Part shown: positions 13,222 through 59,394 of the stretch, one piece after another
How positions within the stretch are numbered: the stretch's first letter is position 1
Layout: each line of letters begins with the position of its first letter
The notes under the pieces: model-generated
Seen by the model: the letters and a program-made list of their open reading frames with translations, nothing else
Told to the model about the DNA's origin: nothing
Database searches by the model: none
Made by a program: the position numbers and the translations under genes
IMG/VR virus record: IMGVR_UViG_3300022554_000003
DNA length: 64,000 nt
Strand: one strand, 5' to 3'
DNA from: a virus

Positions 13222-16199
13222 ATATTGAAGCAAAGGTCTATAGACTTAATAGCCAAAATGCAGACATAAGAAAAATTTTGGAATATAACTTTTTTGATTA
13301 TGAGGACAGCGATTCAAGCTATACATTTTGGAGAAATGCCTTTACGGTCATTCAAATGCAAGGGCAACAGAAAACTGAACAACAAAGAAAAAGAGATTTA
13401 TATCTTGATTATTATACTAAAGCTTTAGATGATATGATAGACCTTGCGAAAGACGAAAATCAATTTTATATTGAGGAGTTTGACATATCAAAACAAATTG
13501 AAGGTTATGTCATCAACAAACAATTGAACGTTGTCTTTAAAGTTCAGAATATTGTATTTAAACAAACATCAGATTTTCTGATAAGAGATAATGATTTAGT
13601 AGTAATTAAAGAAGATGGCAAAGTAGTTTTAATAGGATTTGTTGTTTCAGTTTCTACTGAAATTAGTTATGGGGAATTCCCATCAAGAGATGCTTCAGTA
13701 GGGGATATAGGATATTTATATAACATAGCTCATACAGTTGCTGATAGGGCTGTTGCAAACTATGCAGTATCTGGAAGAGATACTAAAGATCTTGAAGAAA
13801 ATGTATTTTCGGATATATATAATAATTTCAATGTGTTTCAAATTATAAAGAGAATTCTTGTGAATTACATGTTTGCTGTAGAATCTAAATCGGATGTTGA
13901 AATAAACACTGTGAATTATTATTTTGATGCTAAAGCATTCAATGAATCTTTTGCAAAGTCAACAGATAAAAACCCAGCTTCATTTGCAATAATATTTGTG
14001 TTTTTAAGACTGATGCAAAAATATGGAGAGTATACTGGTTTTGGAGATTTTCAATGGGCAAAAGTCGAACATGGAGAACATAAAGCTTATAATGAAATGA
14101 TAACAAGTAATTTTGAATTATTTAGGCCATCTTTTAAAACTGCTGCCTCGGTTTTTGAAGATGTGATTAAGCAAGGGATGTATAACTTTTTCGTAGATGT
14201 TGATGGTAAATTTGTAGTTCGTCCACCGTTATATAATTACTATGGTCAATTACCAGAAGACAATGTAAAAGATTCAGCATTAATATTGACTAACAATGAA
14301 AATGGCGAACCAATATATGTATTGAATCCAGCATATAGTCACTATATTAAAGAAAGCGAGATATTATCTGAAAAACTTACTTTTGATAATGCTGACATAA
14401 AAACGAGAACTGATGCTCAGTTCGTATGGCCATTTGTAGGACAAGTAGATTGGAAGCCTACATTTTATATTGATGTAAAAGGTTTGGTCAAATATGGTTT
14501 TCGAAACGGAGAACCATATACAAATCCAAATGCTACATCATCTGAATTGGCAACGCTGCTTGCTGCGATGAACAATGTTATAGAAAATAGTATGACGAGA
14601 AAATTAGAGATTCAAGTAAAAACTCAAGATATTGATAGATTTAAAATAGGAGAAATGTACTATATAGAAAAGCCAATTGAAGGTGCGGTGAACTCCCTGG
14701 GTGAAAAAACTGGGTCATTTGGATATTTGATAGATGTTGAGCGTTCAGTTGAATATGGAAAATATCCTTTAACGAAGTTGACGTTCTCTTATTTGAGAAC
14801 AATGGAGATGGTAGAACCAAAAGCTGCAAGTAATAAGTCTGCTGGAAATATTGTTGATATTATAAATATTTATAGAAGATATGGAATATTTCAAAATATA
14901 GCAACTTCAAGATTAACGTCTGCTGAATACAAAAAAAAATCTAAGCAGCAAATAGATGCATTTTATGATAAGATAAAAGATAAAAAACTGATTCCAGCGT
15001 TTAAAGTATTACCATCAATTCTTGATTTTATAAAAATAACATATGAAGATACACAAATTGCTCAAAAAGCAAAAACAAGAAATACTCAAATACAAATAAA
15101 AGAGGCAGACTCAGCTCAGCTTGATAGCGATGGAACAACATACAAATCTTTTAAAGTGAAAATGCAAAGATTTTTCGATGTTAAAGTAAATAATGGAACT
15201 ATATATGAAGTTAACAGTAATCCTAAATTTTCTACATTTACAAATGCAACCGAAGCATTCAAGCAAAACATACAATATACAAAAAATTTGTATAAATCTT
15301 TCGCCGGTAAAACAATTAATCATCATGGATATCCGTTTAAGATATATGAAAATGATAATGTAAACTTGGATATATATAATATGGATACAGGGTATGACCA
15401 AATGTTAATAGGATTTGTCAAACAACTGCTTTTAAATAGAATTGTAGAATGTGATGCGGACATGAAGACTGTTTTTGAAGCAGCATTGAGAAATTATGAT
15501 GGTGGAATAACACCAAATTTAGTTTATATGCCAAATTCAGCTCTTAAAAAATTTGCTATTAATACATCTTTCTCTTGGGAAAACGACTTTGTTAGAATAA
15601 CAACCACAGATGTTGCTTCGCTTGTAAACTACAGATATTCTGCAGGCAGTGCTCCAAATAATCAAACAAGATTTATTTATAATAGTAATGGTTCATATAT
15701 AGTCCATCCACAGTTTTTTTTGACAATGGATATGTTGCAATTGAACATAATGCTTTCAAAAGCAAATACTGTAAGTGCTGAATCTATTGACAAAAAACTA
15801 AATAATACAAGTCAACATCTTTTGGAATCGCATCAACAAGGAAGGGCTATAGATATTCATATTCCAGCAAGAGGGGCAAATCCAGGTAAAGCTCAATTTT
15901 TATATCCATATAGAGAGTTCATGCCTTTGTCTGATGATAATGTTGTAAAAACTACAATTACATACAAATCTGCATTTTATGATTGGTTTGAAGGAATATT
16001 AATAAAGCATTTTGATGTTGTAAAAAGATATCCAATGATTCAATTCGATATATCTCCGTTAAACTTAAAAGATTCAACTGGTGCACCAATAACTATATAT
16101 TATGCTGATGTATATCATTTAGAAGTCTTAGGAGACAATTATCAACAGATAGCAAAAGAATTACTTAAAGTTGGTAATGCATCTTCTGGAATCATATAG
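13218..16199 (+). CDS. Large baseplate hub protein with C-terminal LAS/M15-like metallopeptidase motif
   Basis: 993 aa, ATGA overlap. ESHQQGRAIDIH resembles the SxHxxGxAxD zinc-ligand motif of VanY/M15 peptidases. A later YHLEV may supply the last His. Confidence 0.6.
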   Translation: MNIEAKVYRLNSQNADIRKILEYNFFDYEDSDSSYTFWRNAFTVIQMQGQQKTEQQRKRDLYLDYYTKALDDMIDLAKDENQFYIEEFDISKQIEGYVINKQLNVVFKVQNIVFKQTSDFLIRDNDLVVIKEDGKVVLIGFVVSVSTEISYGEFPSRDASVGDIGYLYNIAHTVADRAVANYAVSGRDTKDLEENVFSDIYNNFNVFQIIKRILVNYMFAVESKSDVEINTVNYYFDAKAFNESFAKSTDKNPASFAIIFVFLRLMQKYGEYTGFGDFQWAKVEHGEHKAYNEMITSNFELFRPSFKTAASVFEDVIKQGMYNFFVDVDGKFVVRPPLYNYYGQLPEDNVKDSALILTNNENGEPIYVLNPAYSHYIKESEILSEKLTFDNADIKTRTDAQFVWPFVGQVDWKPTFYIDVKGLVKYGFRNGEPYTNPNATSSELATLLAAMNNVIENSMTRKLEIQVKTQDIDRFKIGEMYYIEKPIEGAVNSLGEKTGSFGYLIDVERSVEYGKYPLTKLTFSYLRTMEMVEPKAASNKSAGNIVDIINIYRRYGIFQNIATSRLTSAEYKKKSKQQIDAFYDKIKDKKLIPAFKVLPSILDFIKITYEDTQIAQKAKTRNTQIQIKEADSAQLDSDGTTYKSFKVKMQRFFDVKVNNGTIYEVNSNPKFSTFTNATEAFKQNIQYTKNLYKSFAGKTINHHGYPFKIYENDNVNLDIYNMDTGYDQMLIGFVKQLLLNRIVECDADMKTVFEAALRNYDGGITPNLVYMPNSALKKFAINTSFSWENDFVRITTTDVASLVNYRYSAGSAPNNQTRFIYNSNGSYIVHPQFFLTMDMLQLNIMLSKANTVSAESIDKKLNNTSQHLLESHQQGRAIDIHIPARGANPGKAQFLYPYREFMPLSDDNVVKTTITYKSAFYDWFEGILIKHFDVVKRYPMIQFDISPLNLKDSTGAPITIYYADVYHLEVLGDNYQQIAKELLKVGNASSGII

Positions 16200-25031: not shown

Positions 25032-26090
25032 ATGAATTTGCAAACAATACCAATTTTGGATTTAGCAGGAACGAAAAGATTTGCAATATTTTGTTGTGGT
25101 GGTGGGGCTGCTGGAGCATATCAAGCAGGATGGATGGTAGCACTATCACAAGCTGGTGTTGTTCAAGACGCAGACCTTATAGTCGGTACTTCAGTTGGTT
25201 CACTTAATGCAGCTTTGTTTGCGGAATTTGGAGCTGTATTACCACCTCCACCTGAAGGAATGCCAAAATTACCAGACCCTTTTATGACTGCCATTGAAGT
25301 ATGGGAATCTATTAATAAAAACTCTGATGTTTATAATGGAGACCTTGGGTGGCCACGTGTTATTGGTGGGGCTATAACTGGAGCAAAGTCAGTACTTGAT
25401 AGAAGTCCACTAAAGAATAAACTCAAAGATGTTTTTGGAGATCAGAATGTTGGAGATGTTGTCACAAACATAGAAACACATTTTGCAGTTTGTGTTGGAA
25501 ATCTTAATACAAAAAAACCAGAGTTTATAAACTCTTGGGACCCGCAGTATAAAGATGTAAAATTATTTGATGCTTTATGTGCTTCATCTGGGATTCCGAT
25601 AGCATTTGACGCAATAAATATACAACCTCTCGTACAACAAAGAAAATCACCACAATGGATGGTTGACGGTGGAGTTGCGGCAAATAATCCATTTGCAGTT
25701 CTTGCTAATTATAACAAAACATTCCCAGATAAAAAGATTGAGAAAGTTATGATTATGTATTGTTATCCAGATGATGTATCAGATTTAGGAGTCTCTCAAG
25801 GAGCACCGGATAATAAAAAATATGAAGCGTTTAGAGATGTTGGTATTGGAACACTTCCTCTTGTTATGAACGGTCAAGAAGTAATATTGGAACAATTTAT
25901 TGAACTACTTACTATGTATGGAGGGCCTGATGTAGTTGCTTGTGCTCCAAAAACGATTCCTTGTGATACATTGGATTTCACAAAACGTAAACAAGCAATG
26001 GATATGGGTTATGCTGATGCTATTATTGGAAAGGTTTTTTCTTATAAAGATAATTGTGAGATAAACATATTAGATTTTTTAAAACGATAG
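25032..26090 (+). CDS. Patatin-like phospholipase
   Basis: Oxyanion box CCGGGAAGAYQAG, nucleophile elbow GTSVG (GxSxG), catalytic Asp box MVDGGVAANNP (DGG). Confidence 0.8.
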   Translation: MNLQTIPILDLAGTKRFAIFCCGGGAAGAYQAGWMVALSQAGVVQDADLIVGTSVGSLNAALFAEFGAVLPPPPEGMPKLPDPFMTAIEVWESINKNSDVYNGDLGWPRVIGGAITGAKSVLDRSPLKNKLKDVFGDQNVGDVVTNIETHFAVCVGNLNTKKPEFINSWDPQYKDVKLFDALCASSGIPIAFDAINIQPLVQQRKSPQWMVDGGVAANNPFAVLANYNKTFPDKKIEKVMIMYCYPDDVSDLGVSQGAPDNKKYEAFRDVGIGTLPLVMNGQEVILEQFIELLTMYGGPDVVACAPKTIPCDTLDFTKRKQAMDMGYADAIIGKVFSYKDNCEINILDFLKR

Positions 26091-32752: not shown

Positions 32753-33082
32753 ATGGAGAGGTTGATAAATATAAACATTCCTTTTAAACTTTCTTGGAGC
32801 TATATGAACAAAAAACCATATTACGAAATAGGAAAGACATACATTTATCCTCACACTGGAGAACATTGTATTTTAGTCGAAACCAAGACTAATGAAAAAT
32901 GCAATGATGACGGACAAGAATCTTGTGCTATATGTAAGGGTAAAATAAAGTTTAAAACTTCAAGCGGAAAAGAAATCATTACATGCCCATATACATACAA
33001 CGAAGTCAGTCGTGATTGGGTACCATATCTTCTTAAAATAGGAGAGGAACCTTTGCTTTCGTATCATGGAGATAAGAAATGA
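32753..33082 (+). CDS. Small zinc-ribbon-like protein
   Basis: C-x...CAICKG...TCP cysteines. Start at 32753 is uncertain. Confidence 0.45.
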   Translation: MERLININIPFKLSWSYMNKKPYYEIGKTYIYPHTGEHCILVETKTNEKCNDDGQESCAICKGKIKFKTSSGKEIITCPYTYNEVSRDWVPYLLKIGEEPLLSYHGDKK

Positions 33083-33963
33083 TAGTCGTTGATGGAATGT
33101 CGGATTTTTATCGTCATTACTGGAAGATACAACGAGTTGTAGGACCGAATGTTGCTGGATTTATGGGGATGATACGTGGTGTGTTTTCATACAAGAAACA
33201 AGATAAGGATGTTCGAATTGTTTGGGAGGGAAAATCGACCATTCGAAAGAATATTAATGTGCTTTATAAAGGTGATAGAAAAAGAATGCCTGACACATTT
33301 TACGAACAACTCAACGATACACAATCATTCCTTTCTCATTTTTTTAAACAGTATATGGTTGAGGAGTACGAATCTGATGACCTTTGTGCTACCATTGCTT
33401 ACAAAAGGAACCGCATTGGGAAAACTACAAAAATAATTTCTGGCGACGGAGATATACACCAAATTATCAACGAAAATATATCTGTATATAATCCGGCAAG
33501 AGATATTGAAGTAAATGTTGAAACATTTAAAGATGAATATGGACCAAATCTTTTATCTCATCATCTTCTTGGATTATGGGCTCTTGAAGGTGATGCAAGT
33601 GATAATATCATTGGAATCAAAGGACTCAAGAAACGGTCAGAGCTTGTAGCAGCATATTTTCCAGACTATGCATTGATATTAAGTGACATTGAATTTGAAG
33701 ATGTTGCTGAAAGATTTTATAAAGCTCTCATCGAAGACAAAAAAGGAATAATGACTCCAAAGGATAAAGCAAAAGTCATGGCAAACAAAAAATTGATTTA
33801 TGATAATATGAATCTTATAAGACTTCGTCTTGTACCAAAAGAATTCTACAAAAGAATAGAAACCAGAGATGACCCAAAGGCTTTAATTGAGAAGTACAAA
33901 TGTTTTAAATCTTTGATGAAATACTTGGAAGAGCCAAATGAAAATAAGCCAGCGACAGATTGA
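33079..33963 (+). CDS. 5'-3' exonuclease / flap endonuclease (PolA N-terminal, FEN family)
   Basis: YESDDLCATIA, ISGDGDIHQI and GDASDNIIGIKGLKKRS match the PIN and H3TH motifs. Confidence 0.8.
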   Translation: MIVVDGMSDFYRHYWKIQRVVGPNVAGFMGMIRGVFSYKKQDKDVRIVWEGKSTIRKNINVLYKGDRKRMPDTFYEQLNDTQSFLSHFFKQYMVEEYESDDLCATIAYKRNRIGKTTKIISGDGDIHQIINENISVYNPARDIEVNVETFKDEYGPNLLSHHLLGLWALEGDASDNIIGIKGLKKRSELVAAYFPDYALILSDIEFEDVAERFYKALIEDKKGIMTPKDKAKVMANKKLIYDNMNLIRLRLVPKEFYKRIETRDDPKALIEKYKCFKSLMKYLEEPNENKPATD

Positions 33964-34429
33964 CTATGTAAAATCAATTCCAATAAGGGATGTTCTTGCT
34001 TATTATGATGTGAAGATACCAGAAAGCAACATGATTCGTTGCATTAATCCACATCATGAAGATAGAACACCATCGATGTACATTTATGATGAGATAAATA
34101 TAGCAAAATGTTTTGGTAAATGTCACAAAGGCTATGATACAATAGAAATAGTTAGAGCGATTGAAGGTAAGGGATTTGAAGATGCAGTAATGTTTTTGTA
34201 CAATACATTCGCTGCAAAAATGCTTGTTGCGAAGAAAAAGCAGAAATTAAATCTTGAAATTTATCTTAAATTAAATAAAGAATTAAAACGTTTGTTCAAC
34301 ATAGTGAAGAACGATAAAAACATGAGAATAAAATTTGCTAAAGTAATGCAAACAATTGATTTACAACCAGAAAATAATGTGTTAATATTGAAGTTGTATA
34401 AAACACTTCTTAAGGAGATTATTCAATGA
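33938..34429 (+). CDS. Stand-alone DnaG-type CHC2 zinc-finger protein (primase zinc-binding domain)
   Basis: CINPHHEDRTPSMYIY...AKCFGKCHKGYDTIEIV is the zf-CHC2 pattern. No RNA polymerase or Toprim domain follows. Confidence 0.7.
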   Translation: MKISQRQIDYVKSIPIRDVLAYYDVKIPESNMIRCINPHHEDRTPSMYIYDEINIAKCFGKCHKGYDTIEIVRAIEGKGFEDAVMFLYNTFAAKMLVAKKKQKLNLEIYLKLNKELKRLFNIVKNDKNMRIKFAKVMQTIDLQPENNVLILKLYKTLLKEIIQ

Positions 34430-35526
34430 GAAACTTTATGGTTGGGAATAACTTTGATGAAAAACTTGTTGATGAGATAATAGAGCTCAATAATAGTGGG
34501 GCTGTTGAACAAATAAATACTCTCGCTGGGCAGAAAAATTTCAAAATAAAAGAGATGTATGGTAGTACAACATCAACATTTCCTCAATATACAGCAAGAC
34601 CTTTGTACCGCCTTCCTGATAAGTCAATTGAAGAGACGATGAGAATCAAAAAGAAACTTGAAGACAACGGCATAATGTTCAATCTCACAATGAATGGCCC
34701 AAACGTAGATAAGACAAAGTTTGATGCTGCTGGATTTGTTGAGTTCCTGCGAAAGTATGAAATAAAACGAATTACAGTCACATCAACACTTTTATTAGAA
34801 GTCCTTCAGCAATCTGACCTTGATATAGACATAGAGCTTTCAACAATCTATCACATCAGCTCAATATACCAAATGGAACTTCTTCTAAGGCGTTATCCAA
34901 AAATTAAAAAGGTATGCATGAACCTTCAGAAGAATAGGGATATGAATTTCTTAAGAGATTTCAGCAAGACATTTGGTCAATATATTGATGTTGAAGTAAT
35001 GGTAAATGAATTTTGTTTATTCCATTGTCCTAACAGAATGTCATGTTATATGAACCATCAAAATGTAAAGACAGTTGAAGAAAGTAAATTGTTCTCAAAT
35101 TATCCAATGAGAGACTGTATACATGCAAGAGCAACGGATTTTGCTGAATGGCTCAAAACAAGATTTATCCTTCCAGAATGGCTTGGATATTATGAAGATA
35201 TAGGAATCAATCATTTCAAAATAACCGGTCGAACATCGTCCACGGATTTTGTGCTTAAGGTCTTGAAAATTTATCTTGGAATGATACCAAACTACACTTT
35301 TGGAGAGCTTTGGTATCATCTTGAAAATATAGGTAATACAAGGGAAAATAAATTTACTCCAGATTTATTGAAGAAAATAGGACCAGAACATCTTACAGAA
35401 TATGAACAGTTTGTGTATGGTGAACAGCAAGAACTTGATGTTGATAACAACCATAATGCGATGTCTTATTACGAAGGCAAAATGAGATATTTTGCGGACA
35501 AAATTACAAGGATGGTAAGCAAATGA
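34426..35526 (+). CDS. U32-family (collagenase-like / Fe-S hydroxylase family) protein, tentative
   Basis: VEVMVNEFCLFHCPNRMSCYMN resembles the U32 signature E.F.hGa.C.sySG.C. INHFKITGRTSSTDFVLKVLKIYL resembles the VKIEGR...Y region. Judged by eye only. Confidence 0.45.
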   Translation: MRNFMVGNNFDEKLVDEIIELNNSGAVEQINTLAGQKNFKIKEMYGSTTSTFPQYTARPLYRLPDKSIEETMRIKKKLEDNGIMFNLTMNGPNVDKTKFDAAGFVEFLRKYEIKRITVTSTLLLEVLQQSDLDIDIELSTIYHISSIYQMELLLRRYPKIKKVCMNLQKNRDMNFLRDFSKTFGQYIDVEVMVNEFCLFHCPNRMSCYMNHQNVKTVEESKLFSNYPMRDCIHARATDFAEWLKTRFILPEWLGYYEDIGINHFKITGRTSSTDFVLKVLKIYLGMIPNYTFGELWYHLENIGNTRENKFTPDLLKKIGPEHLTEYEQFVYGEQQELDVDNNHNAMSYYEGKMRYFADKITRMVSK

Positions 35527-36752
35527 AGATATTATATTATCCACAAATCAGCTCTGTTGCAAATGGTAAGGCAGTACTGAATACTGAAGCTACATTTAAT
35601 ATCATGTTAACATTCATTAAGTGCATCAATGAAATGCACAATACTTTTGAATGGGTATTCCTTATTCCGAGCAAAAGCGAATTCAATAAGGAAATGCCAT
35701 CAAATGTTACGATGATTCCAATTGATATGTATTTGGACTCAAAAATTGGGAGATATGATTTTAATGCTCAAAAGGTTGAAGCAATAATCAAAGAACATAA
35801 ACCAGATATTATTATAAATAATAATCCTACGTTAACCAGAAATATAAGAATTCTTGCACCAAATACTCCAATCATACAGAAGAATGATTTTCAAGGACAT
35901 GGTTTACCTGAGAATATCAATTATCGCATTCGTCAGGTGGATGGAGTAATATCATCAGATGTTGCATTTGAAATCACTCAGGCCAACAAGGATTTGTTTA
36001 TTCGATATGCTGCGAATGAATTCAATAGTAAAATCATAAACATTCTTAAGAAAAAGATTCGAGTTATAAAGCAAGGAGCATATGCAAAAGAAATAAATGA
36101 ATGGAAGAAGAGGTTTACAGTAGAGAGGTTTAATGTGCCTTGGAAAATAGTATTTCCAGGACGAATAGGAACTACAAATTATAACCACTGGCATGATATG
36201 TTGGGTGCTATTACCACGGGACAGTTTGATACAAGAGAGTTTCAATTTATCTTCACAAATCCAACAAAAGAAAAAGGGAAGCAGATTTTGATTGAAAGAC
36301 TTCAGAAACAAAATATTAGCATTATCAAAGAAAATGACCACACAGATTTCACAGAGTTGGTGCTTGAACACGGTCAGTCAATATATTTATTCAAATATCC
36401 AGATGTAAGAGAAAAATACATTGAGCTTCTTTGCACATCAAATGTTGGAGTTCAATTGTTTGACAAAAACGAAGAGCCACACGGCGGAATAGCCTGTAGA
36501 GAAATGGCATGGTGTAATCTTAAGCTTATATTATCAGACACGTTTAGAGTTAATGGTTTTGTGAAAAAGAACTACAAATACATAGTTAATATGTCATCTT
36601 ATACAAATACAGTAAAAGACCTTATAAAAAAGATTAAAGCAATTGTTAAAGAAGATGGAAGTTTAGTTTATAATGTGGAGACAATGGAAGAAGGGGCTAA
36701 GATATTAAACGACACAATAATGGAGTTGCTAAATGTCAAGAAGACGAATTGA
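35523..36752 (+). CDS. GT-B fold glycosyltransferase (GT4-like)
   Basis: N-terminal MKILYYPQ...KPDIIINNNP and C-terminal EEPHGGIACREMAWCN resemble the E..G....EAMA motif. Confidence 0.55.
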   Translation: MKILYYPQISSVANGKAVLNTEATFNIMLTFIKCINEMHNTFEWVFLIPSKSEFNKEMPSNVTMIPIDMYLDSKIGRYDFNAQKVEAIIKEHKPDIIINNNPTLTRNIRILAPNTPIIQKNDFQGHGLPENINYRIRQVDGVISSDVAFEITQANKDLFIRYAANEFNSKIINILKKKIRVIKQGAYAKEINEWKKRFTVERFNVPWKIVFPGRIGTTNYNHWHDMLGAITTGQFDTREFQFIFTNPTKEKGKQILIERLQKQNISIIKENDHTDFTELVLEHGQSIYLFKYPDVREKYIELLCTSNVGVQLFDKNEEPHGGIACREMAWCNLKLILSDTFRVNGFVKKNYKYIVNMSSYTNTVKDLIKKIKAIVKEDGSLVYNVETMEEGAKILNDTIMELLNVKKTN

Positions 36753-37200
36753 ATCTGATAGGATGTATATGGACATAGCTTATACTGTGGCCAAACGTAG
36801 CTCTTGTCTTCGTAGACAAGTTGGTGCTGTTCTTGTTGTGAATAAACATATCGTATCTACTGGCTACAATGGTGCTCCAAGGGGAGTGAAAAGTTGTTTG
36901 GATAAGGGAGTTTGCATGAGAGAGGATGTTCAAAGTGGGACTAAGCTTGAATATTGTATGGCAGCTCATGCTGAAGCAAACGCAATTGCTCAGGCAGCTT
37001 TTCATGGAATACCAACAGAAGGAGCTACAATATATACTATATACAGTCCTTGTTCTTTTTGTGCTAAAATAATAATTAATGCTGGCATCAAAGAAGTAGT
37101 GTATGAAGAGGAATATACTGATGAACTTGGAATGATGTTATTGAAAGAAGCTGGAATTAGTATGAGGAAGATGGTTAAAAATGCAAAAGATGGTCAATGA
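36733..37200 (+). CDS. dCMP deaminase
   Basis: CMAAHAEANAI (HAE) and SPCSFCAKIIINAGIKEVVY (PCxxC). 155 aa. Confidence 0.85.
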   Translation: MSRRRIESDRMYMDIAYTVAKRSSCLRRQVGAVLVVNKHIVSTGYNGAPRGVKSCLDKGVCMREDVQSGTKLEYCMAAHAEANAIAQAAFHGIPTEGATIYTIYSPCSFCAKIIINAGIKEVVYEEEYTDELGMMLLKEAGISMRKMVKNAKDGQ

Positions 37201-38407
37201 TTGGAATCAAAAAATATTTGAGTGTGATAAAAATTGTTTGTCAGATAAACGCGGTGGTAATATAGGGAATATAGATTCGGAAATATTGTTCATTGCACAG
37301 ACACCAGGACAACAAAAACCAGAGACACCTAATGAAGACATAGTACCTTTTGGATTTTACAAAAAGAAAGAAGATAAGGTTAAAAGTGAAGTTGTTTTTC
37401 ATTGGATGATAGAGCTACTTGGATTGACTGAAAAAGATTTTTATTTAACAAATGTTGTTAAATGTGCTACAAATGAAGTGCCAAATTTAAAAGTTACAGA
37501 AATATGTGTAAACAAGTTTTTGTTGAATGAAATTAAAAGAATGAGGAATTTGAAGTATATAATATGTATGGGAGAACAAGCCAAAGCTTTTGTAGCTTAC
37601 TTTAAGGACCAATTCGATGCCAATGATAAGTACAAGTATTTTTTTATTTGGCATCCTTCATTTTTGAGCAGAAATGGTTTTGTGGATGACATAAACAGAA
37701 AATACGGCAACGAAACGATTTTTAATAACTATAGGAATAAAATTATATCCATAAAGGAGGTTTTTGATATGTCAGAAGAGAAAGGTGTTGTTGGTAAAGA
37801 TGTTGAATTGGGGAAGGTTTATAAAACAGTTGGAAGGGGTACAGTAGTAAAAATCACAAAAATTGAAAAAAAAGGTGACAAACTTGAAATTTTTGGAATA
37901 ACTCATCCAAAATTTAGTTTGGTCACTGTTCCACTTGATATGAGGCTTATTGAAGCGGAGAATCAGAAGGAATACGATTTTAGTGGTGCAGAAAGTGTGG
38001 CTGACGAAGTTAAAGAGGAAAAGAAAGAAGAAAAGAAAGCCGAAGCCAAGGAAGAAAAGGAAGAGAAAAAGGAACCGAAAGAAGAGAAGAAAGATAAAGA
38101 AGAAAAGAAGGAAGAAAAGAAAGAGAAAGCTGAAGGCAAAGGAACCCGCAAAGGTAAAATCGACCGCAAGGAAACCGAAGCTCTCTACAAAGCTGTCAAA
38201 GCTCATCTTGAAAAAGTTGGTGGTACCAAAGTCAATAAGAACTATGTCGTCTTCAAGATAGATGACATCAAGTGCAGGCTTTATGCTTATGACTGCATGG
38301 TACTCGCTGATAAGAAAATCAAGGACATCGAGCCTATGAAGAAGTTCGATGACTATGTGAAATACCCAGTTCAGGACCTCTTCAAGGTCATAGGCTACAA
38401 AGGGTAA
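37181..38407 (+). CDS. UDG-superfamily (family 4-like, 4-Cys) domain fused to a K/E-rich linker and an unknown C-terminal domain
   Basis: ECDKNC...ILFIAQTPGQQ...LTNVVKCA...EICV...WHPSFLSRN. The motif A position reads AQTPG rather than GEAPG. An in-frame internal SD and ATG lie at 37769. Confidence 0.6.
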   Translation: MQKMVNDWNQKIFECDKNCLSDKRGGNIGNIDSEILFIAQTPGQQKPETPNEDIVPFGFYKKKEDKVKSEVVFHWMIELLGLTEKDFYLTNVVKCATNEVPNLKVTEICVNKFLLNEIKRMRNLKYIICMGEQAKAFVAYFKDQFDANDKYKYFFIWHPSFLSRNGFVDDINRKYGNETIFNNYRNKIISIKEVFDMSEEKGVVGKDVELGKVYKTVGRGTVVKITKIEKKGDKLEIFGITHPKFSLVTVPLDMRLIEAENQKEYDFSGAESVADEVKEEKKEEKKAEAKEEKEEKKEPKEEKKDKEEKKEEKKEKAEGKGTRKGKIDRKETEALYKAVKAHLEKVGGTKVNKNYVVFKIDDIKCRLYAYDCMVLADKKIKDIEPMKKFDDYVKYPVQDLFKVIGYKG

Positions 38408-38410
38408 TTC

Positions 38411-38953
38411 ATGTTCATTATTATCGAAGGCATAGACGGCTCTGGGAAGAGTGGACTTATCGATGCACTGACTAGTTTTTACCCAAACTACAAGCGAGCT
38501 GACATTAGAGAACAATGGGCAAAGGTCGACGCAAAGAGTCAAACTTCTCGTAAAAAATTCTTTGTTGATTATTACCAACAACACAAGAATGACAACATTA
38601 TTGTTGATAGATTTCATCTTTCTGAAGCTGTCTATGACCTTACATTAAGAAATACTAAAACTGATATAGCGGACTTTGAAAAGAAAATCTTCGGCAATGA
38701 TGTATCTAATGTTATTCTCATAACAATAGATGTACACGAAGCTGTTGCCCAATCAAGAATAAAAAAGCGTGATGGCAAAGATGAAAAACAAGATTTGGCA
38801 AAGGAGCGTTCTATATTTCTTCGTTTGCATAATCAATCAATGATTCAACATAAGTTGCTCGTCTACAATGATAAGTTTGATATTCTTGTAAAAGAAGTGA
38901 AGGAGAAAATCGAAGATGTTTGTGGAATATCTGGAAAGGTTTTTACGAAGTAA
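38411..38953 (+). CDS. tmk: Thymidylate/dNMP kinase-like P-loop kinase
   Basis: MFIIIEGIDGSGKSGLIDAL P-loop and DRFHLSEAVY (Tmk DRY-like motif). Confidence 0.7.
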   Translation: MFIIIEGIDGSGKSGLIDALTSFYPNYKRADIREQWAKVDAKSQTSRKKFFVDYYQQHKNDNIIVDRFHLSEAVYDLTLRNTKTDIADFEKKIFGNDVSNVILITIDVHEAVAQSRIKKRDGKDEKQDLAKERSIFLRLHNQSMIQHKLLVYNDKFDILVKEVKEKIEDVCGISGKVFTK

Positions 38954-42825: not shown

Positions 42826-42902
42826 TGCCGGGTCGCCAAACTGGTAAGGCATCAGGCTTTGGACTTGACATTGTGCTGGCTCGAGTCCAGCCTCGGCAAC
42901 CA
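42826..42902 (+). tRNA. tRNA-Gln (anticodon UUG), slightly atypical
   Basis: Hand fold: acceptor TGCCGGG/CTCGGCA (U1-A72, one G-U), D arm GCCA..GGC, anticodon stem TCAGG/CTTGA, loop CTTTGGA, T arm GCTGG/CCAGC, encoded CCA. Atypical features are a 6-nt variable region and C at position 54. Confidence 0.6.
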
Positions 42903-43930: not shown

Positions 43931-44569
43931 ATGAGTGGATTGAATCCAGAGAATAAATGTGTTCAATTAGTTGTTGAGGCTGCAAGGGTGCAGTACGATA
44001 AAGATGCATTGAACATAATGATGAATATGCAATACGAGCTCCAGAAGTTTTATGCAAAAAAAAGAGGTTCAATTACTCCAGACCACACCAATAAAGACCG
44101 TATCAAAGAGGCTCTCTATCATTTCAATTGTTATGTAGCCGAGATATGGGAACTACAGGAAAGAATTAATAATGGAATAAAATCAGAAGAAGATTGTATT
44201 GAGTTGAAATTTGAAGCGATAGATGCTTGGCATTTCTTTATGAATATGTTTTTGTACCTTGGTATAAGGAAATTTGATGAGGATCTTGATTTTTATTGGA
44301 CATCTGTTGGCGAACCATCAGATTATAGATTAACACTTAATTGTATAGTAACAGAATGGGGTCATGTTCTTGATGAATTACCTTATAAATATTGGAAGAC
44401 TTATGAGAATTATGATTTTAATGCAAAACGTGTGGAGAAGCTTATGGAGAGCATGCTGTGTTCATTTATATCGTTGTGCAAGTTTGTAAAAATAACAAAA
44501 GAGGAATTCTACTCATATTATATTGCCAAGAATAGGGAGAATTATGACAGGCAAAAGAGGGGTTATTGA
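43931..44569 (+). CDS. All-alpha NTP pyrophosphohydrolase (dimeric dUTPase/dCTPase, MazG-like)
   Basis: YVAEIWELQE, FEAIDAWHFFMNMF and YKYWKTY resemble dUTPase_2 motifs. Confidence 0.5.
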   Translation: MSGLNPENKCVQLVVEAARVQYDKDALNIMMNMQYELQKFYAKKRGSITPDHTNKDRIKEALYHFNCYVAEIWELQERINNGIKSEEDCIELKFEAIDAWHFFMNMFLYLGIRKFDEDLDFYWTSVGEPSDYRLTLNCIVTEWGHVLDELPYKYWKTYENYDFNAKRVEKLMESMLCSFISLCKFVKITKEEFYSYYIAKNRENYDRQKRGY

Positions 44570-47500
44570 TGTCGAATTACGTCAGCCTTCACAATCACGA
44601 TACATTCTCAGTTCTTGATGGAATGTATCGACCAATTAAGTATTTAGAGAAAGCAAAATTACTTGGAATGAAAGCATATGCTCAAACAAATCATGGCAAC
44701 ATGAGTGGTGCGTTTGAGTTCTATGATGCTGCAAAACGAGTCGGGATTAAACCAATCTTGGGTGTTGAAGCATATTTTGTCAATGACATGACAATCAAAA
44801 GTAAAGATGCAGAAAAGAACAAACATATAATTCTGCTTGCGAAGAATGAAGCTGGGTATAGGAAGCTTCTTAAAGCTCAATATGATGCTGTCAAAGTTGG
44901 TTTTTATTATAAACCAAGAATTGATTGGACTGTTCTTGAATATCTCAAGGGCGATGTTATAGTATCAAGTGCTTGTATTAGTGGAATTATAGCCCGATAT
45001 GTAGATAATGCTCTTAACAAAGGAAATGAAAGTGATAGAGACACTAGTGGTCAAATGGATATAGCCATTAAGAATGCAGAACGTCTCAAGAAAATGTTTG
45101 GTGATGACTTTTATTTTGAATATATTGCTCTAGAGCGAACAAAAGTTTATGGACCAGTTTGGAGTAAAATGCAGGAGATAGCCAAAAGCTTAAAGATTAA
45201 AAGTATAATAACAATTGACACTCATTATCTTTCAAGGGAAGATGCTGAGCTTCAAGATATAATACATAACGTTGACAATAATTTTACAATGGAAGATATT
45301 AAAAAAGGCAAAGGTTGGGTATTTGATGATAGAGATGTTTATCTTAAATCTTATGACGAAGTTAAATCAATTATGACCAAAGTATTTAATGAAGATATGG
45401 TAGACAAATTCCTGGAGAATACTTGTGAGATTGCGGACAAAATAGAAGAATTTAATATATATCCAAAAGGAGAAGTATTTCCAAAAACAAATTTTGATGA
45501 GACAAAAATTAAGACAATGTTGAAGAAGGCATTGGATACAAGAATTCCGCAGAAAAAGAGAGATAAATATGTTGCTCGTCTGAATTATGAATATAAAGTC
45601 ATAAAGCAACTTGGGTTCCTTGAATATTTTTGGATTGTTCAGGATATAGTTAACTGGGCAAAAAATAATGGTATTGAGGTTGGTGTAAGTCGTGGAAGTG
45701 CTGGTGGTTGTCTTATATCATATCTACTTGGCATAACTGAGATGGACCCAATTCGTTTTGGGCTTAGTTTTGAACGTTTCTTGAATCCAACAAGAAAAAA
45801 ACAACCTGATATCGATATAGACTTTCAGACTTCAAAACGTCAAGAAGTTTTGGCTTACATAAAGTCATACGGGGAAGAAAACACTTCACACATTCCAAAT
45901 TATGTAAACCTCACAACAAAATCAGCATTCAAGGACGTTGCTAAGGTTTATAACATTCCTTTTGCTGAGGCGAATTCTTTCAATGATAATCTTGAAGTGT
46001 ACGAAGCAGAAGGTAGAATTCCAAAAGAATTCAGACCATATTATGATAAGGCAAAGAGGCTTGAAGGAAATATTAGACATTTTGGTATTCATGCAACTGG
46101 TATAATAATGACTGATAAACCAATTTATTATTATTTGCCGGTTATATCATCGAAAGGAAATGTTATAGCAGCAATTGATGGAAAGACTTTGACTGGGAAA
46201 GGTTTTCTTAAGATTGACATATGTGGAATTGATGCTCTTGATATTATTCAATTGACAAAAAAATATATTAAAAAATATGAAAAGAAAGATGTTGATTTAT
46301 TAAATTTAGACCTTAAAGATGATAAGGTGCTTCAAATATTTCGTGATGGGGATACTGCGAATGTGTTTCAGTTCGAAACGCACAACTTTAGAGAACTTCT
46401 TAAAGAGGTAAATATAACCAAATTCAAAAATTTGATTGAGCTTAATGCTCTTAATCGACCAACTCCATTGTCAGTTGGCTATCATTTGGAGTATATTAAA
46501 AGGTCATGGGGTGGCGCTTACACTACTGCGAAATTACTTAAACCTCATTTAGAGTCTACATATGGATTACTTTTATATCAAGAACAAATTAACAATATTC
46601 TTGCGGATTGGCTTGATATATCTATAGGTGAGGCTGACAATATTAGAAGAGATATTGAAAAGCCTGATAAAGGTTTTATGATGGTAATGGAGCCATACAA
46701 AGAAAAGTTGTATAAAAAATATGGCAAAAAAGATGTTGACGAAGCATATGAAGAGTTGGCTCAAGCAGCTGGTTATGCCTTTAACAAATGTTTAACCGGA
46801 GATACAAAAATATATAAAAAATTTGGTGGTATGCGCAAGAAAGAAACTACTATTTTGGATTTGTATAATAATACAAAAATAACTACTAATGGAACTTTAA
46901 GATATAAAAGAAACAAAAATGTACCAATGCTTTATTCATATGATGTTAATAATAATAAATTTATTTTTAATACAGTGAAAAGTATTATAGACAATGGGAT
47001 ACAAGATGTTTATGAAATTGAATTATGTTGTGGCAAAAAAATAAAAGCTACAAAAAATCATAAATTTTTAACGAATAAAGGTTGGAAAACTGTTGAAGAA
47101 ATAAATAAAGATAAAACTTTGCAAATTGCGTATAGAGGTATAAGCGATACATGGAATAAAGGATTAACAAAAGATAATGATATCAGATTAAAGAAATTGT
47201 CTGAGAGAAGAATTAGGAATAGAAATTTTTTTAAGAAATTTGGTAATCAACCGCACAATAAAGGAAAAAATAAAAATAATTATTTACCTTTAAAAGCTGT
47301 ATCAGAAAAAGCAAAAGGCAGGGTATTTAGTTTGGATGCTATAGATAAAATGAAAGAATCTGCAAAAAAAAGAGAAAGAAAAGGAAACCCGGGGAAAAGA
47401 AGTGAAGAAGTAATAAATCGTATGAGGGCAACTACAGCAAAAATGCACGTGGAAGGTAAGTTTCCGAAAAAATTTACAAAACCACATATAATGTTAATTG

Positions 47501-47814
47501 ATGCTATGAAAAAAAATAGTATTTATGATGGATTTGAAAGCGAGGTTCTTGTTGGTTTTCATTCTATAGACATAGCAAATATAAAAAGAAAAATAGCAAT
47601 TCAAGTTGACGGTGATTATTACCACGTGAATCCAGAATGGATGAAAAAACGAAATAGAAAAAAAATAGATGCTATTCAAAAAAGAAATATTGGTCAAGAT
47701 AAGTCTTGTAATACTTATTTGAAAAATAAAAAATGGATTATTTTGAGATTTTGGGCAAGTGATATTGAAAATAACATTGATGTAGTTATTAAAAAAATAA
47801 AAGAGGTGTTATGA
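44566..47814 (+). CDS. dnaE: DNA polymerase III alpha (DnaE) N-extein fused to intein N-fragment and homing endonuclease
   Basis: PHP motif SLHNHDTFSVLDG, GVSRGSAGGCLISYLLGIT, PDIDIDF, GYAFNK. Then CLTGDTKIY (Hint block A) from 46789, TKNHKF (block B), NUMOD3-like repeats and a Vsr-like nuclease. Stop at 47812-47814. Confidence 0.85.
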   Translation: MMSNYVSLHNHDTFSVLDGMYRPIKYLEKAKLLGMKAYAQTNHGNMSGAFEFYDAAKRVGIKPILGVEAYFVNDMTIKSKDAEKNKHIILLAKNEAGYRKLLKAQYDAVKVGFYYKPRIDWTVLEYLKGDVIVSSACISGIIARYVDNALNKGNESDRDTSGQMDIAIKNAERLKKMFGDDFYFEYIALERTKVYGPVWSKMQEIAKSLKIKSIITIDTHYLSREDAELQDIIHNVDNNFTMEDIKKGKGWVFDDRDVYLKSYDEVKSIMTKVFNEDMVDKFLENTCEIADKIEEFNIYPKGEVFPKTNFDETKIKTMLKKALDTRIPQKKRDKYVARLNYEYKVIKQLGFLEYFWIVQDIVNWAKNNGIEVGVSRGSAGGCLISYLLGITEMDPIRFGLSFERFLNPTRKKQPDIDIDFQTSKRQEVLAYIKSYGEENTSHIPNYVNLTTKSAFKDVAKVYNIPFAEANSFNDNLEVYEAEGRIPKEFRPYYDKAKRLEGNIRHFGIHATGIIMTDKPIYYYLPVISSKGNVIAAIDGKTLTGKGFLKIDICGIDALDIIQLTKKYIKKYEKKDVDLLNLDLKDDKVLQIFRDGDTANVFQFETHNFRELLKEVNITKFKNLIELNALNRPTPLSVGYHLEYIKRSWGGAYTTAKLLKPHLESTYGLLLYQEQINNILADWLDISIGEADNIRRDIEKPDKGFMMVMEPYKEKLYKKYGKKDVDEAYEELAQAAGYAFNKCLTGDTKIYKKFGGMRKKETTILDLYNNTKITTNGTLRYKRNKNVPMLYSYDVNNNKFIFNTVKSIIDNGIQDVYEIELCCGKKIKATKNHKFLTNKGWKTVEEINKDKTLQIAYRGISDTWNKGLTKDNDIRLKKLSERRIRNRNFFKKFGNQPHNKGKNKNNYLPLKAVSEKAKGRVFSLDAIDKMKESAKKRERKGNPGKRSEEVINRMRATTAKMHVEGKFPKKFTKPHIMLIDAMKKNSIYDGFESEVLVGFHSIDIANIKRKIAIQVDGDYYHVNPEWMKKRNRKKIDAIQKRNIGQDKSCNTYLKNKKWIILRFWASDIENNIDVVIKKIKEVL

Positions 47815-47951
47815 TGGGATTTGGTAGTAAGGAAATAATAAAATATTCAAAAATAAAAAATATAAAACATATTGGCAAAGATAGAACTTTTGATATAGAA
47901 ATGATTGATGAACCAAGAAATTTTTTAGCAAACGATATTGTATCACATAAT
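46789..47951 (+). mobile_element. DnaE intein with Vsr-like homing endonuclease, encoded across two ORFs (frame break at 47811-47814)
   Basis: Cys1 at 46789. The C-terminal fragment ends ...NDIVSHN at 47951 and is followed by the Ser+1 extein SHSCAYAY. The joined exteins restore GYAFNK-SHSCAYA. Confidence 0.8.
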
Positions 47952-48470
47952 TCGCATAGTTGTGCCTATGCTTATGTTGCATTTCAAATGGCATATCTTA
48001 AATGTTATTATCGCAAGTATTTCAATTTGGCTGTGTTGAATTCGGAAGAAAAACAAGAAAAGATAGACCGCATTATTGATGATTGTGACAAACATGGAAT
48101 ACATATTAATGCATTTAACATAAATGAAATGAGTGTTCATTTTACTATCAACAAAGATGGTGAGATAAATGCTGGGGCAAGAATTGTCAAGGGGTTGGGA
48201 GAGAGAACTATAGAAACAATTATTAAAAATAAACCATATAAAAATTTTGAAGATTTTATGAACCGTGCAAAGTCAGAAACTCCTAAAGGTGGTTTTCGTA
48301 AGATTCCAAGTAACGTTATAAAGATATTGTATGACTATGATTTTTTTGAAAATGCTTGGGGAAAAACAGAAAATAGAAAAGTCGAGGAGTATTTAGATAG
48401 TATATCAGCGGCTAAGAATAAAAAGAAAGGTGGGAAAAATAGTGCAGGAAAAACCAAAGGTGAAAGTTGA
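47811..48470 (+). CDS. dnaE: Intein C-fragment (47 aa) fused to the DnaE C-extein
   Basis: Own SD AAAGAGGTG and ATGATG overlapping the upstream stop. FDIEMIDEPRNFLANDIVSHN|SHSCAYAYVAFQMAYLKCYY. Confidence 0.8.
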   Translation: MMGFGSKEIIKYSKIKNIKHIGKDRTFDIEMIDEPRNFLANDIVSHNSHSCAYAYVAFQMAYLKCYYRKYFNLAVLNSEEKQEKIDRIIDDCDKHGIHINAFNINEMSVHFTINKDGEINAGARIVKGLGERTIETIIKNKPYKNFEDFMNRAKSETPKGGFRKIPSNVIKILYDYDFFENAWGKTENRKVEEYLDSISAAKNKKKGGKNSAGKTKGES

Positions 48471-57997: not shown

Positions 57998-58331
57998 CCA
58001 ATATATAGATAAATTCGCAGCTTCCATTAAAGATGAGGAGTTTGATATTACAAATAATGTTGAAAAATTTTATGCATCGGAATTATTTAAAGATTTTAAT
58101 GATTTGGCATTGGCAAATCTTGTTGGTGCTCTTAAAGACATGGAAATAACAAGTGGTGATTTTGAAGAGCTTGTACAAAGCTTTAAACTTAATTATACGG
58201 AAGAACAAATAAATAAACTTATATCAGCAGTTGATCCACCAAAACCATCAACAAATCCACCACCTGGAAAGGTATGGATTAAAGAAAGAAAAAAAGATGG
58301 CACTGCTGAATGGGTCTTGGTTGACCAATAA
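57957..58331 (+). CDS. Hypothetical protein
   Basis: 124 aa. SD GAGGTG upstream. Confidence 0.5.
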   Translation: MKTKLQQKIESLFDQYIDKFAASIKDEEFDITNNVEKFYASELFKDFNDLALANLVGALKDMEITSGDFEELVQSFKLNYTEEQINKLISAVDPPKPSTNPPPGKVWIKERKKDGTAEWVLVDQ

Positions 58332-58341
58332 TAAGGGTTTT

Positions 58342-59394
58342 ATGAATAATATCGAGCAATTCAAAAGGCACATAGCGTTTGACCTTGACGGTACGGTCCT
58401 CGAAGAGACTGAGTGGTCAGAACTTGGTAAACCAATACCTGAAAATGTAGCATTCATAAGAGCACTTCACAAAGCTGGAGTTCCAGTAGCTATTTATACT
58501 GCAAGGATTTACCAAGATAAAAGTATGGAGGAAAAAACTGCGGCATATCTCGAAGAGATTGGCGTCCCATACAGTGAATTATCTTGCGAGAAAAAACCTT
58601 ATTATGTATTATTTGTCGACGATAGGGCGGAGAAAGTAGAACATAATAAACCATGGTCAGAGAAGAATAAAGAAAATATTTTGATGATGGTTGAACGATA
58701 CAAAATGAATGAATTTCCAATTGATGCTATATCAATGGATATTGATGTGTCTAAAACATATGATTCTGAGGTTTCAAAAATAGAAGTTATGGAGAATACA
58801 GATTCGACAGTAATGGCCGGGAAAATGAAGTTATCTACTTTTATTTCTCAAGGTCAATATGAATATGTTTATTTTGCAACTGGTGGTCAATTGATGTCAT
58901 TGAGTAAAGGTCAATTAACACAACCAATAATTGACGAGATCGTAAAAAAGCAACCATCTGTTATATGGCTTATAAAGAATAAAATGAAAAAAGTTTCTGA
59001 GTTTATGTCTTATTGGGAGCAAAAACAAATGGAGCCACAGATCACATATTTTGGGCATCCATCAGATTCTATGAGAAGAGTAGTTGTATTTTTGAAAGAT
59101 GGAGTGTTAGGAGAGTTTTTTGTTATCAGTGTCTATAATAAAGAGCAGTATATTGTTAAATTAAGCGATTTGATAAAGGTAAATCCAAACAAATTTATTA
59201 TAGCTTCTTTAGATGAAGAACTTGACGAGAAACTCAACAAAGATTTAACTGATGAAGATATTGCAAGAATTCTTGATAAGATAAAGAAAAAAAATTTGAA
59301 CATAAACGTATTGAAGCTTGCATGGCCAGAAATTAATACTCAAAAGAGTGACTTATTAAAGAAACTAAGGGAAGGCAAATCAAACATAGTATAA
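58342..59394 (+). CDS. HAD-superfamily phosphatase domain protein with unknown C-terminal domain
   Basis: Start moved to ATG 58342. HIAFDLDGTVLE is the DxDxT motif I. IYTAR and FVDDRA resemble motifs II and IV. Confidence 0.55.
   Translation: MNNIEQFKRHIAFDLDGTVLEETEWSELGKPIPENVAFIRALHKAGVPVAIYTARIYQDKSMEEKTAAYLEEIGVPYSELSCEKKPYYVLFVDDRAEKVEHNKPWSEKNKENILMMVERYKMNEFPIDAISMDIDVSKTYDSEVSKIEVMENTDSTVMAGKMKLSTFISQGQYEYVYFATGGQLMSLSKGQLTQPIIDEIVKKQPSVIWLIKNKMKKVSEFMSYWEQKQMEPQITYFGHPSDSMRRVVVFLKDGVLGEFFVISVYNKEQYIVKLSDLIKVNPNKFIIASLDEELDEKLNKDLTDEDIARILDKIKKKNLNINVLKLAWPEINTQKSDLLKKLREGKSNIV

Follow-up and report, generated by a model that had tools for sequence, protein, structure and literature searches.

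The locus described here raises the question of how a phage might hydroxylate cytosine at C5, and then decorate the hydroxyl group with a sugar, without the use of molecular oxygen. It lies in IMG/VR virus record IMGVR_UViG_3300022554_000003, a 64,000-nucleotide (nt) stretch of DNA that is called the window in its entirety, where five consecutive open reading frames (ORF1 to ORF5; Table 1) encode a U32-family protein, a GT-B glycosyltransferase (GT), a dCMP deaminase, a uracil-DNA glycosylase (UDG)-like protein, and a Tmk-like deoxynucleoside monophosphate (dNMP) kinase. In RB69 and the Acinetobacter phage DLP3, cytosine is replaced by arabinosylated 5-hydroxycytosine (5hoC) (Lee et al., NAR 2026, PMC13326640). 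The source of the window is a phage of approximately 100 kb with a DNA base-modification operon related to the RB69 operon for sugar-decorated 5hoC. In a reading that we judge to be evenly poised, the homologies described below point to a pre-replicative glycosyl-5hoC pathway in which the U32 protein would supply the hydroxyl group without O2.

The U32 protein and the genes coupled to it

ORF1 is a true but divergent U32-family protein, as an earlier note made from the sequence of this DNA had supposed. Its match to Pfam PF01136 (Peptidase_U32) scores 29.7 bits against a cut-off of 22.4 and is limited to 37 residues (amino acids 258 to 294); PHROG 5757 is matched with an E-value of 1.9e-58, and NCBIfam gives no match. 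A profile of the clade, aligned from 44 homologues found in metagenomes, was compared by hhalign with Escherichia coli UbiU, UbiV, RlhA, and TrhP (probability = 98.2%, E = 5.9e-14, number of columns = 224), and the FKITGRT motif of the clade aligns to the canonical KIEGR motif. Cys197, Cys201, Cys207, and Cys231 are invariant across the 44 sequences, and the last three align in ORF1 with Cys169, Cys176, and Cys193 of UbiU. The AlphaFold2 model of ORF1 has a predicted local distance difference test score (pLDDT) of 93.9 and a predicted template modeling (TM) score of 0.92. Its top Foldseek match in the PDB is the U32 peptidase Mk0906 (accession number 5D88; E = 1.9e-6, TM score on target = 0.66), presumably the sole solved U32 structure, and the matches below it are generic TIM barrels. 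The best match in the viral structure library is an RB69-like "peptidase". A function as a true peptidase or prohead protease was rejected because of the Fe-S cysteine motif, the replication-module setting, and the lack of association with structural genes.

Among cultured phages, tblastn with ORF1 finds matches in RB69-type Straboviridae only (37-38% identity), and ORF1 belongs to the same phage clade as RB69 gp50. Gene neighborhoods of approximately 30 phage loci of the U32 clade, designated by L numbers, were gathered and surveyed by phmmer. Most members of the clade carry an extra C-terminal four-cysteine motif (CxxxxCGxxCxYC; e.g., L022, 9971-11074), which may be a second Fe-S site or a zinc site.

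The catalytic domain of the phage proteins is homologous to that of the cellular enzymes RlhA, which is responsible for 5-hydroxycytidine (ho5C) at position 2501 of 23S rRNA, TrhP, responsible for 5-hydroxyuridine (ho5U) at position 34 of tRNA, and UbiU/UbiV, which act in anaerobic ubiquinone synthesis. The cysteine cluster and the KIEGR-like motif are common to all of them, and the chemistry predicted to be shared with RlhA and TrhP is hydroxylation of a pyrimidine at C5 without O2. On the other hand, the phage proteins are single domains of approximately 360 residues that are very divergent and differ in the spacing of the cysteine ligands; they have no evident partner subunit, unlike UbiU/UbiV, and their proposed substrate is a deoxynucleotide or DNA. 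That the phage protein is instead the product of an auxiliary gene acting on RNA, one that adjusts translation during infection through ho5U34 of tRNA or ho5C of rRNA and has no relation to its nucleotide-gene neighbors, seems to us scarcely credible. The window does encode a tRNA-Pro(UGG), an isoacceptor type that in E. coli bears uridine 5-oxyacetic acid (cmo5U34) derived from ho5U. The only assigned nucleic-acid functions of the family, those of RlhA and TrhP, are likewise on RNA (PMC6599085), yet the phage proteins are without the C-terminal extensions of these two enzymes, the clade is embedded in or coupled to deoxynucleotide and DNA-glycosylation genes at approximately 30 loci with four polymerase types, and in T-even phages the U32 gene lies within the cluster for arabinosyl-5hoC.

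ORF2 alone has no match in Pfam, PHROG, NCBIfam, or the PDB sequences. An exhaustive HMMER search yielded 56 remote homologues of approximately 400 residues, and the profile of this family finds GT-B/GT4 enzymes in the PDB, over the half that binds the nucleotide sugar, namely, GlgA (E = 3.5e-4), PglA-type enzymes, tetrahydrobiopterin glucosyltransferase, and WbaZ; single members of the family match Glyco_transf_4, Glycos_transf_1, and QTMAN_N. The GT-B assignment of the earlier note holds at the level of the family profile and is not visible from ORF2 itself. By hhalign, the ORF2 profile (A6) aligns to that of the RB69 gp46:47/phiR1-RT g046 "arabinosyltransferase 1" family (A7) with a probability of 99.3% (E = 1.8e-20, number of columns = 314), and RB69 gp46:47 is the predicted first, base-proximal sugar transferase onto 5hoC (PMC13326640). 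ORF2 is a remote homologue of the base-proximal transferases of the gp46:47/DLP3 gp79 type and a candidate DNA 5hoC O-glycosyltransferase. BLAST and phmmer detected no direct similarity of ORF2 or of the ORF5 kinase to the GT and kinase of phiR1-RT, and the link for the GT comes from profiles only. The ORF2 family adjoins U32 in L005/6, L016-18, L030/31/33, and L037. The AlphaFold2 model of ORF2 was discarded (three-sequence alignment, pLDDT 50). A function as a cell-envelope GT was rejected, since ORF2 is translationally coupled within a nucleotide-metabolism operon and is homologous to the DNA-transferase family of RB69.

The identities proposed earlier for the deaminase, the kinase, and the pyrophosphohydrolase were all borne out by profile searches. 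ORF3 matches dCMP_cyt_deam_1 in Pfam (E = 1.1e-23) and PHROG 174 (E = 1e-50), with HAE and PCxxC motifs visible, and a dCMP deaminase adjoins U32 in L002-6, L016-18, and L037. ORF5 matches Thymidylate_kin (E = 6.3e-8) and PHROG 761 (E = 1e-19). A Tmk-like kinase stands next to the GT in the clusters of RB69, phiR1-RT, DLP3, RL38J1, and Lazarus and is present at most U32 loci; ORF5 is a candidate 5-hydroxy-dNMP kinase. The all-alpha nucleoside triphosphate (NTP) pyrophosphohydrolase downstream of the operon matches dUTPase_2 (E = 3.9e-11) and PHROG 173 (E = 1.3e-14), and a gene of this type occupies the same place upstream of DnaE in L002 and L003. It is a candidate dCTPase or dUTPase that would exclude the canonical nucleotide.

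These genes could also be assigned to a pathway directed at uracil, in which U32 would hydroxylate dUMP fed by the dCMP deaminase, the Tmk-like kinase would phosphorylate 5-hydroxy-dUMP, and glycosylated 5-hydroxyuracil would replace thymine. We consider this decidedly unlikely. The deaminase gene adjoins or overlaps U32 in three different gene orders, and the kinase and pyrophosphatase resemble Tmk and dUTPase_2, respectively, yet T4 and RB69 also have a dCMP deaminase and Tmk-like genes and modify cytosine. TrhP hydroxylates uridine (PMC6599085) and no phage thymidylate synthase was seen in the window; however, all ThyA homologues that co-occur with U32 are dCMP-specific (N177D), the transferase families have a homologue in the 5hoC transferase of RB69, and a genomic base derived from uracil would be hard to reconcile with a UDG-family enzyme in the operon.

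That enzyme, ORF4, has a UDG superfamily domain (amino acids 1 to 190; Pfam E = 1.1e-14) whose motif A reads AQTPG, as the earlier note had reported, and aligns to GEGPG of Thermus thermophilus UDGA (PDB accession number 1UI0). The family-4 motif A (GE[A/G]PG), with its catalytic acidic residue, was not found in ORF4, which retains motif B (HPSFLSRN) and VKC and scores 35 bits against the family-4 model TIGR00758, far under the cut-off of 125. A long low-complexity linker rich in K and E joins the UDG domain to a C-terminal domain that in the closest relatives is a separate ORF of approximately 185 residues, located 3' of the UDP-galactopyranose mutase (UGM) gene (L002, 15655-16227; L003, 15700-16260), and is also matched in L004. 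The UDG domain is part of a fusion protein with DnaE in L016-18 and with PolB in L007. For this reason we take ORF4 to belong to the replisome or to repair, probably as a replisome-associated surveillance module that may remove uracil or the deamination product 5-hydroxyuracil. The idea in the earlier note that the UDG-like protein was recruited as a base-modifying enzyme was rejected on the basis of these fusions, UDG in related phages being fused or adjacent to DNA polymerase.

Known glycosyl-5-hydroxycytosine systems and the ThyA-type synthase

The genes of the RB69 5hoC pathway are clustered across gp45-gp55, where the ThyA homologue gp48 makes 5-hydroxy-dCMP (5hodCMP); gp48 is flavin-bound, takes its oxygen from O2, and on its own yields 5-hydroxydeoxycytidine (5hodC) in E. 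coli (PMC13326640). The U32 protein gp50 is encoded inside this cluster, with the UDP-arabinose genes on one side and the gene for the 5hodCMP synthase on the other. It appears in that study as a table entry ("sugar or heterocycle reductase") with no discussion in the text, and the two tRNA pyrimidine-hydroxylation pathways mentioned in the Discussion are not tied to gp50 (PMC13326640). In the literature library that we searched, no paper was found that links U32 to phage DNA modification. DLP3 makes tri-arabinosyl-5hoC without a U32 gene (PMC13326640), and the cluster of Acinetobacter phage Lazarus is syntenic with that of phiR1-RT except that the U32 gene is missing; U32 is therefore unneeded for the activation or transfer of arabinose.

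The window resembles the RB69/DLP3 system in its U32 protein of the gp50 type (as in RB69), its transferase of the gp46:47 superfamily with a Tmk-like kinase adjacent in that system and present in the window too, the dCMP deaminase and all-alpha NTP pyrophosphatase in the genome, and the pre-replicative logic. It differs in that no ThyA-type 5hodCMP synthase was found in the window, that the UDP-arabinose genes (arabinose-5-phosphate (A5P) isomerase and AfhE) are absent from it, and that its replisome is of the DnaE type, whereas that of RB69 is T4-like. Moreover, the hydroxylase role in RB69 is experimentally assigned to gp48 and not to gp50. A second system, the galactosyl/glucosyl-5hoC of Rhizobium phage RL38J1 (Pootjesviridae) (PMC13326640), likewise groups the genes for its kinase, GT, and hydroxylase in one cluster, and the closest relatives of the window (L002-4) have UGM beside the transferases. 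RL38J1, however, has a D169N ThyA homologue and no U32 listed, and the window itself is without UGM. Since no dedicated nucleotide-sugar gene (A5P isomerase, AfhE, or UGM) was found in the window, its GT would have to use a sugar donor of the host. A 387-residue ORF at 58231-59394 has an N-terminal HAD-phosphatase domain (58372-58635) with weak similarity (E = 1e-5) to the phosphatase of the RB69 gp51/AfhF type from the arabinose pathway, followed by approximately 250 C-terminal residues without a match; the protein may serve the modification pathway as a phosphatase of sugar phosphates or nucleotides.

The earlier note had taken the glucosyl-5-hydroxymethylcytosine pathway of T4 (gp56 dCTPase, gp42, gp1, cd, and alpha/beta-GT) as its model. 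The strategy proposed for the window is that of T4, in which dCTP is destroyed, dCMP is modified, phosphorylated, and incorporated, and glycosylation takes place on DNA, with the dCMP deaminase balancing the supply of dTMP. However, no ThyA-family dCMP hydroxymethylase of the gp42 type was detected in the window, its transferase is unrelated to alpha/beta-GT and is related to the RB69 type, and the predicted linkage is an ether to the C5 hydroxyl rather than through a hydroxymethyl group. The proper comparison is the glycosyl-5hoC system of RB69, DLP3, and RL38J1 (PMC13326640).

Across the approximately 30 loci, U32 is found with Tmk-like kinases, transferases of the gp46:47 and ORF2 types, sugar-nucleotide enzymes, and dCMP deaminase. 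In the closest relatives of the window (59-78% identity), the order is U32, dCMP deaminase, a direct gp46:47 homologue (E = 2e-16), UDG, Tmk-like kinase, a GT47-like GT, and UGM (TIGR00031, E = 1.3e-73), and this set of mutase and GTs recalls the galactose-bearing 5hoC of RL38J1. Other U32-carrying phages have DnaE, PolB, or PolA replisomes. U32 is accompanied by a gp46:47-like GT, A5P isomerase, and AfhE in L008, L024, and L025; by a KdsA-like enzyme and an epimerase in L008 and L027; and by an ORF2-type GT together with radical-SAM and methyltransferase genes in L005/6, L016-18, and L030. Genes for a radical-SAM/SPASM enzyme and/or an S-adenosylmethionine methyltransferase were located by U32 at 11070-12778 of L005, 6648-7586 of L016, and 6439-7236 of L030, all from phages more distant from the window; such partners hint at other 5-O-substituted (e.g., methoxy-type) cytosines formed on the same hydroxyl group.

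A ThyA homologue is encoded beside or near U32 in eight loci representing at least three lineages. All eight proteins have N177D and L143D/E, and at position 169 six of them have Asn, two have Ser, and none has Asp. Residues of these kinds (N177D, L143D/E, and D169N) are signatures of dCMP-specific 5hodCMP synthases (PMC13326640); as all of its ThyA partners bear such signatures, the U32 clade is tightly tied to the cytosine-5-hydroxylation pathway. In L029 (8862-9914) and L030 (7224-8252), the ThyA homologue is located directly upstream of U32 and has Ser at E. coli position 169, a variant of the D169N signature, along with N177D and L143D. On a neighbor-joining tree of the U32 proteins, loci with and without ThyA are interspersed.

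In the window, no ThyA or ThyX was found by Pfam on all replication-module ORFs, by six-frame tblastn, or by phmmer, which agrees with the earlier note, and a hidden Markov model (HMM) from nine ThyA sequences found none at E <= 10 in the window plus 10 kb upstream (74 kb). Many loci with transferase and arabinose genes, such as L008, L024, and L025, have U32 without any ThyA. A closed genome provides a further case. The U32-bearing IMG/VR contig IMGVR_UViG_3300045988_147269 (L022; 48,944 bp) was assembled from four overlapping loci with zero mismatches, and a UGM gene is split over its two ends, the halves tiling UGM residues 3-171 and 180-353; the genome is therefore closed apart from approximately 15 nt. 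It encodes a Tmk-like kinase, a gp46:47-like GT, U32, a GT47-like GT, DnaE, dCMP deaminase, and UGM, and no ThyA was found in its 48.9 kb. Directly downstream of DnaE lies a 156-residue ThyX-like ORF (14801-15400; Pfam Thy1, 29.6 bits, cut-off 24.8), in which RHK...STQR replaces the RHR...S motif and which is far shorter than a normal ThyX. The simplest view of this ORF is that of a candidate dTMP synthase of the ordinary kind. It was also considered as an alternative hydroxylase that might be conserved; jackhmmer found no counterpart at any other U32 locus or in the window.

These distributions bear on a different role for U32, that of an accessory enzyme such as a redox partner or a reductase of sugars or heterocycles, the hydroxylase being a flavoenzyme of the ThyA or ThyX type whose gene lies elsewhere in the genome. 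We regard this as unlikely. U32 is directly beside a ThyA of the 5hodCMP-synthase type in L029, L030/31/33, and L037 and within a few kilobases of one in RB69-type phages, L007, L019, L020, and L034, and the closed L022 genome carries the ThyX-like ORF; on the other hand, gp48 makes 5hodC in E. coli alone, no ThyA was found in the 74 kb searched here or in the closed genome, and the ThyX-like ORF is confined to L022 among the U32 loci. The labels given to gp50, namely, the reductase of the table entry (PMC13326640) and an enzyme of UDP-arabinose biosynthesis (GenBank record), would suit an accessory role as well, but Acinetobacter phages make tri-arabinosyl-5hoC from the same cluster without U32, and U32 is present without arabinose genes in the window, L005, and L016. 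Approximately 25 kb of the source genome lay outside the search, where such a flavoenzyme could be encoded.

Layout of the window and neighboring genes

The window is a one-strand phage segment of approximately 33% G+C, with structural genes at 1-24.6 kb and a replication and nucleotide module from 25 kb to its end. Its 9,654-nt overlap with a metagenome contig in ENA (ERZ27245800 k141_663252; 99,602 bp) shows 100% identity, and megablast found no match among phages for an 11-kb region. The five operon ORFs and the downstream pyrophosphohydrolase ORF announced by the earlier note are all present (Table 1), and their translational coupling is apparent from the junctions within the operon, at which the ORFs overlap by 4, 20, and 20 nt, followed by a 3-nt gap. 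The chain of overlaps extends upstream to a primase Zn-ribbon ORF (33938-34429) and a 5'-3' exonuclease (33079-33963).

Table 1. Coordinates of the operon and of the downstream replication genes in the window
Feature	Position	Strand	Length or domains
ORF1, U32-family protein, phage clade	34426..35526	+	366 aa
ORF2, divergent GT-B (GT4-like) glycosyltransferase	35523..36752	+	409 aa
ORF3, dCMP deaminase	36733..37200	+	155 aa
ORF4, family-4-like UDG domain fusion	37181..38407	+	408 aa
ORF5, Tmk-like dNMP kinase	38411..38953	+	180 aa
All-alpha NTP pyrophosphohydrolase (dUTPase_2-like)	43931..44569	+	212 aa
DnaE-type replicative polymerase, two ORFs, intein-interrupted	44566..48470	+	Pfam PHP, DNA_pol3_alpha, finger, Intein_splicing, HHH_6

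The two DnaE ORFs overlap at 47811-47814, where the stop codon of one meets the start of the next. An N-terminal intein part and a DUF559/Vsr-like endonuclease domain close the first ORF, and the second opens with an IntC-like segment ending ...VSHN|S, an arrangement that may represent a natural split, trans-splicing intein in a phage polymerase. The DnaE of L008 is likewise split, into three ORFs. Near the U32 cluster, a second, independent DNA-modification gene encodes an N6/N4 DNA methyltransferase (PF01555; 40025-41227), of which amino acids 31 to 394 match a profile of 221 positions, a span that implies a large insertion between the catalytic motifs.

Three tRNA genes were found in the window, i.e., Gln(UUG) at 42826-42902, Pro(UGG) at 61100-61175, and Arg(UCU) at 61731-61807. 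The ORF at 24-305 encodes a Thr/Pro-rich tandem peptide repeat (TPTITRTA...) and is probably the end of a structural or fiber protein cut by the window edge. A homing-endonuclease-like ORF (DUF559/NUMOD3-type; 3479-4141) lies within the structural module, its Pfam families being taken from the identical gene in L010. A phospholipase-like ORF of 352 residues (25032-26090), which separates the structural module from the replication module, has the patatin-type motifs GGGxxG and GTSVGS, and its syntenic gene in L003 matches Pfam Patatin.

Proposed pathway and its significance

In the proposed pathway, every chemical step of which we infer from gene identities, homologies, and co-occurrence, the all-alpha pyrophosphohydrolase would return dCTP to dCMP, and U32 would hydroxylate dCMP at C5 without O2, with prephenate supplying the oxygen if RlhA, TrhP, and UbiU/V are a guide. 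Alternatively, U32 might act on cytosine within DNA instead of on the mononucleotide. The Tmk-like kinase and the nucleoside diphosphate kinase of the host would then make 5-hydroxy-dCTP, which the phage DnaE would have to accept and incorporate, and ORF2, by its homology to RB69 gp46:47, would transfer a sugar from a host nucleotide-sugar onto the 5-hydroxyl group in DNA. The dCMP deaminase would convert a share of the dCMP to dUMP and so feed the synthesis of dTMP, the task of cd in T4. The phage U32 protein, a predicted [4Fe-4S] protein, would thereby take the place of the flavin- and O2-dependent 5hodCMP synthase of the ThyA type, which was not found here. The core of the earlier proposal, a predicted hydroxylation by U32 followed by decoration by the GT, survives the computational tests with the support of the gp50 clade, the GT homology, and the genomes that have U32 only, part of the source genome lying beyond the search. 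Its suggestion of a possible novel hypermodification pathway needs to be divided, since the U32 route would be new and the end product is probably of a known modification class.

The distribution in hosts was surveyed in 50,697 records of cultured phages. A ThyA-type synthase is encoded in 380 of them, including 57 Acinetobacter and 22 Rhizobium phages as well as Agrobacterium, Sinorhizobium, and enterobacterial ones. U32 of the gp50 type is encoded in 224 records, all of Enterobacterales phages apart from one marginal match in a Synechococcus phage. The pattern is suggestive, across few lineages, of U32 being kept only where the hosts can grow without oxygen. It parallels the pairs of O2-dependent and O2-independent enzymes in facultative anaerobes, represented in E. 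coli by TrhO/TrhP (PMC6599085) and UbiIHF/UbiUV (PMC10990095). We tentatively extend the proposal, with a little more reserve than for the window itself, to the whole RB69 gp50 clade. Its members may be O2-independent, prephenate-dependent C5 hydroxylases of deoxycytidylate or DNA cytosine that let phages of anaerobes, and of facultative anaerobes deprived of oxygen, build 5-O-glycosylated cytosine, with the ThyA and U32 types as an aerobic/anaerobic isofunctional pair.

Several points weigh against hydroxylation by U32. We know of no phage U32 protein with a known biochemical activity, and the correlation with hosts comes from few independent lineages. The fourth ligand of the predicted [4Fe-4S] cluster, presumed to be Cys197, is off the canonical position, and the window protein, like those of L002, L007/19/20, L034/37, and L025, is without the C-terminal four-cysteine motif that most of the clade carries. 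Other authors have guessed differently at gp50, as noted above for its two labels. A ThyA-type gene could lie in the unsearched part of the source genome (approximately positions 2,000-27,956 of the ENA contig), and the ThyX-like ORF of L022 could be an alternative flavin enzyme. Direct hydroxylase activity is unreconstituted even for RlhA, TrhP, and UbiU/V (PMC10990095).

If hydroxylation by U32 is correct, the phage clade would extend the substrates of the U32 family to a deoxynucleotide or DNA for the first time and would give a function to RB69 gp50. Glycosylated 5hoC was described only in 2025-26, and its known hydroxylase needs O2; the modification class is known, and a U32-based route independent of ThyA would be new. 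To the question of how gut phages such as RB69 would make glycosylated 5hoC under anoxia, the U32 loci offer a concrete and testable answer. A small, single-subunit phage U32 protein with a mononucleotide substrate could also settle the mechanism in which prephenate serves as the oxygen donor. With the radical-SAM and methyltransferase partners of L005, L016, and L030, other 5-O-substituted cytosines might follow. The clade marks uncultured phage genomes with DnaE, PolB, and PolA replisomes that probably carry diverse 5-O-substituted cytosines, and these bear on the evasion of restriction and CRISPR, on the targets of type IV restriction, and on enzymatic tools for modified DNA.

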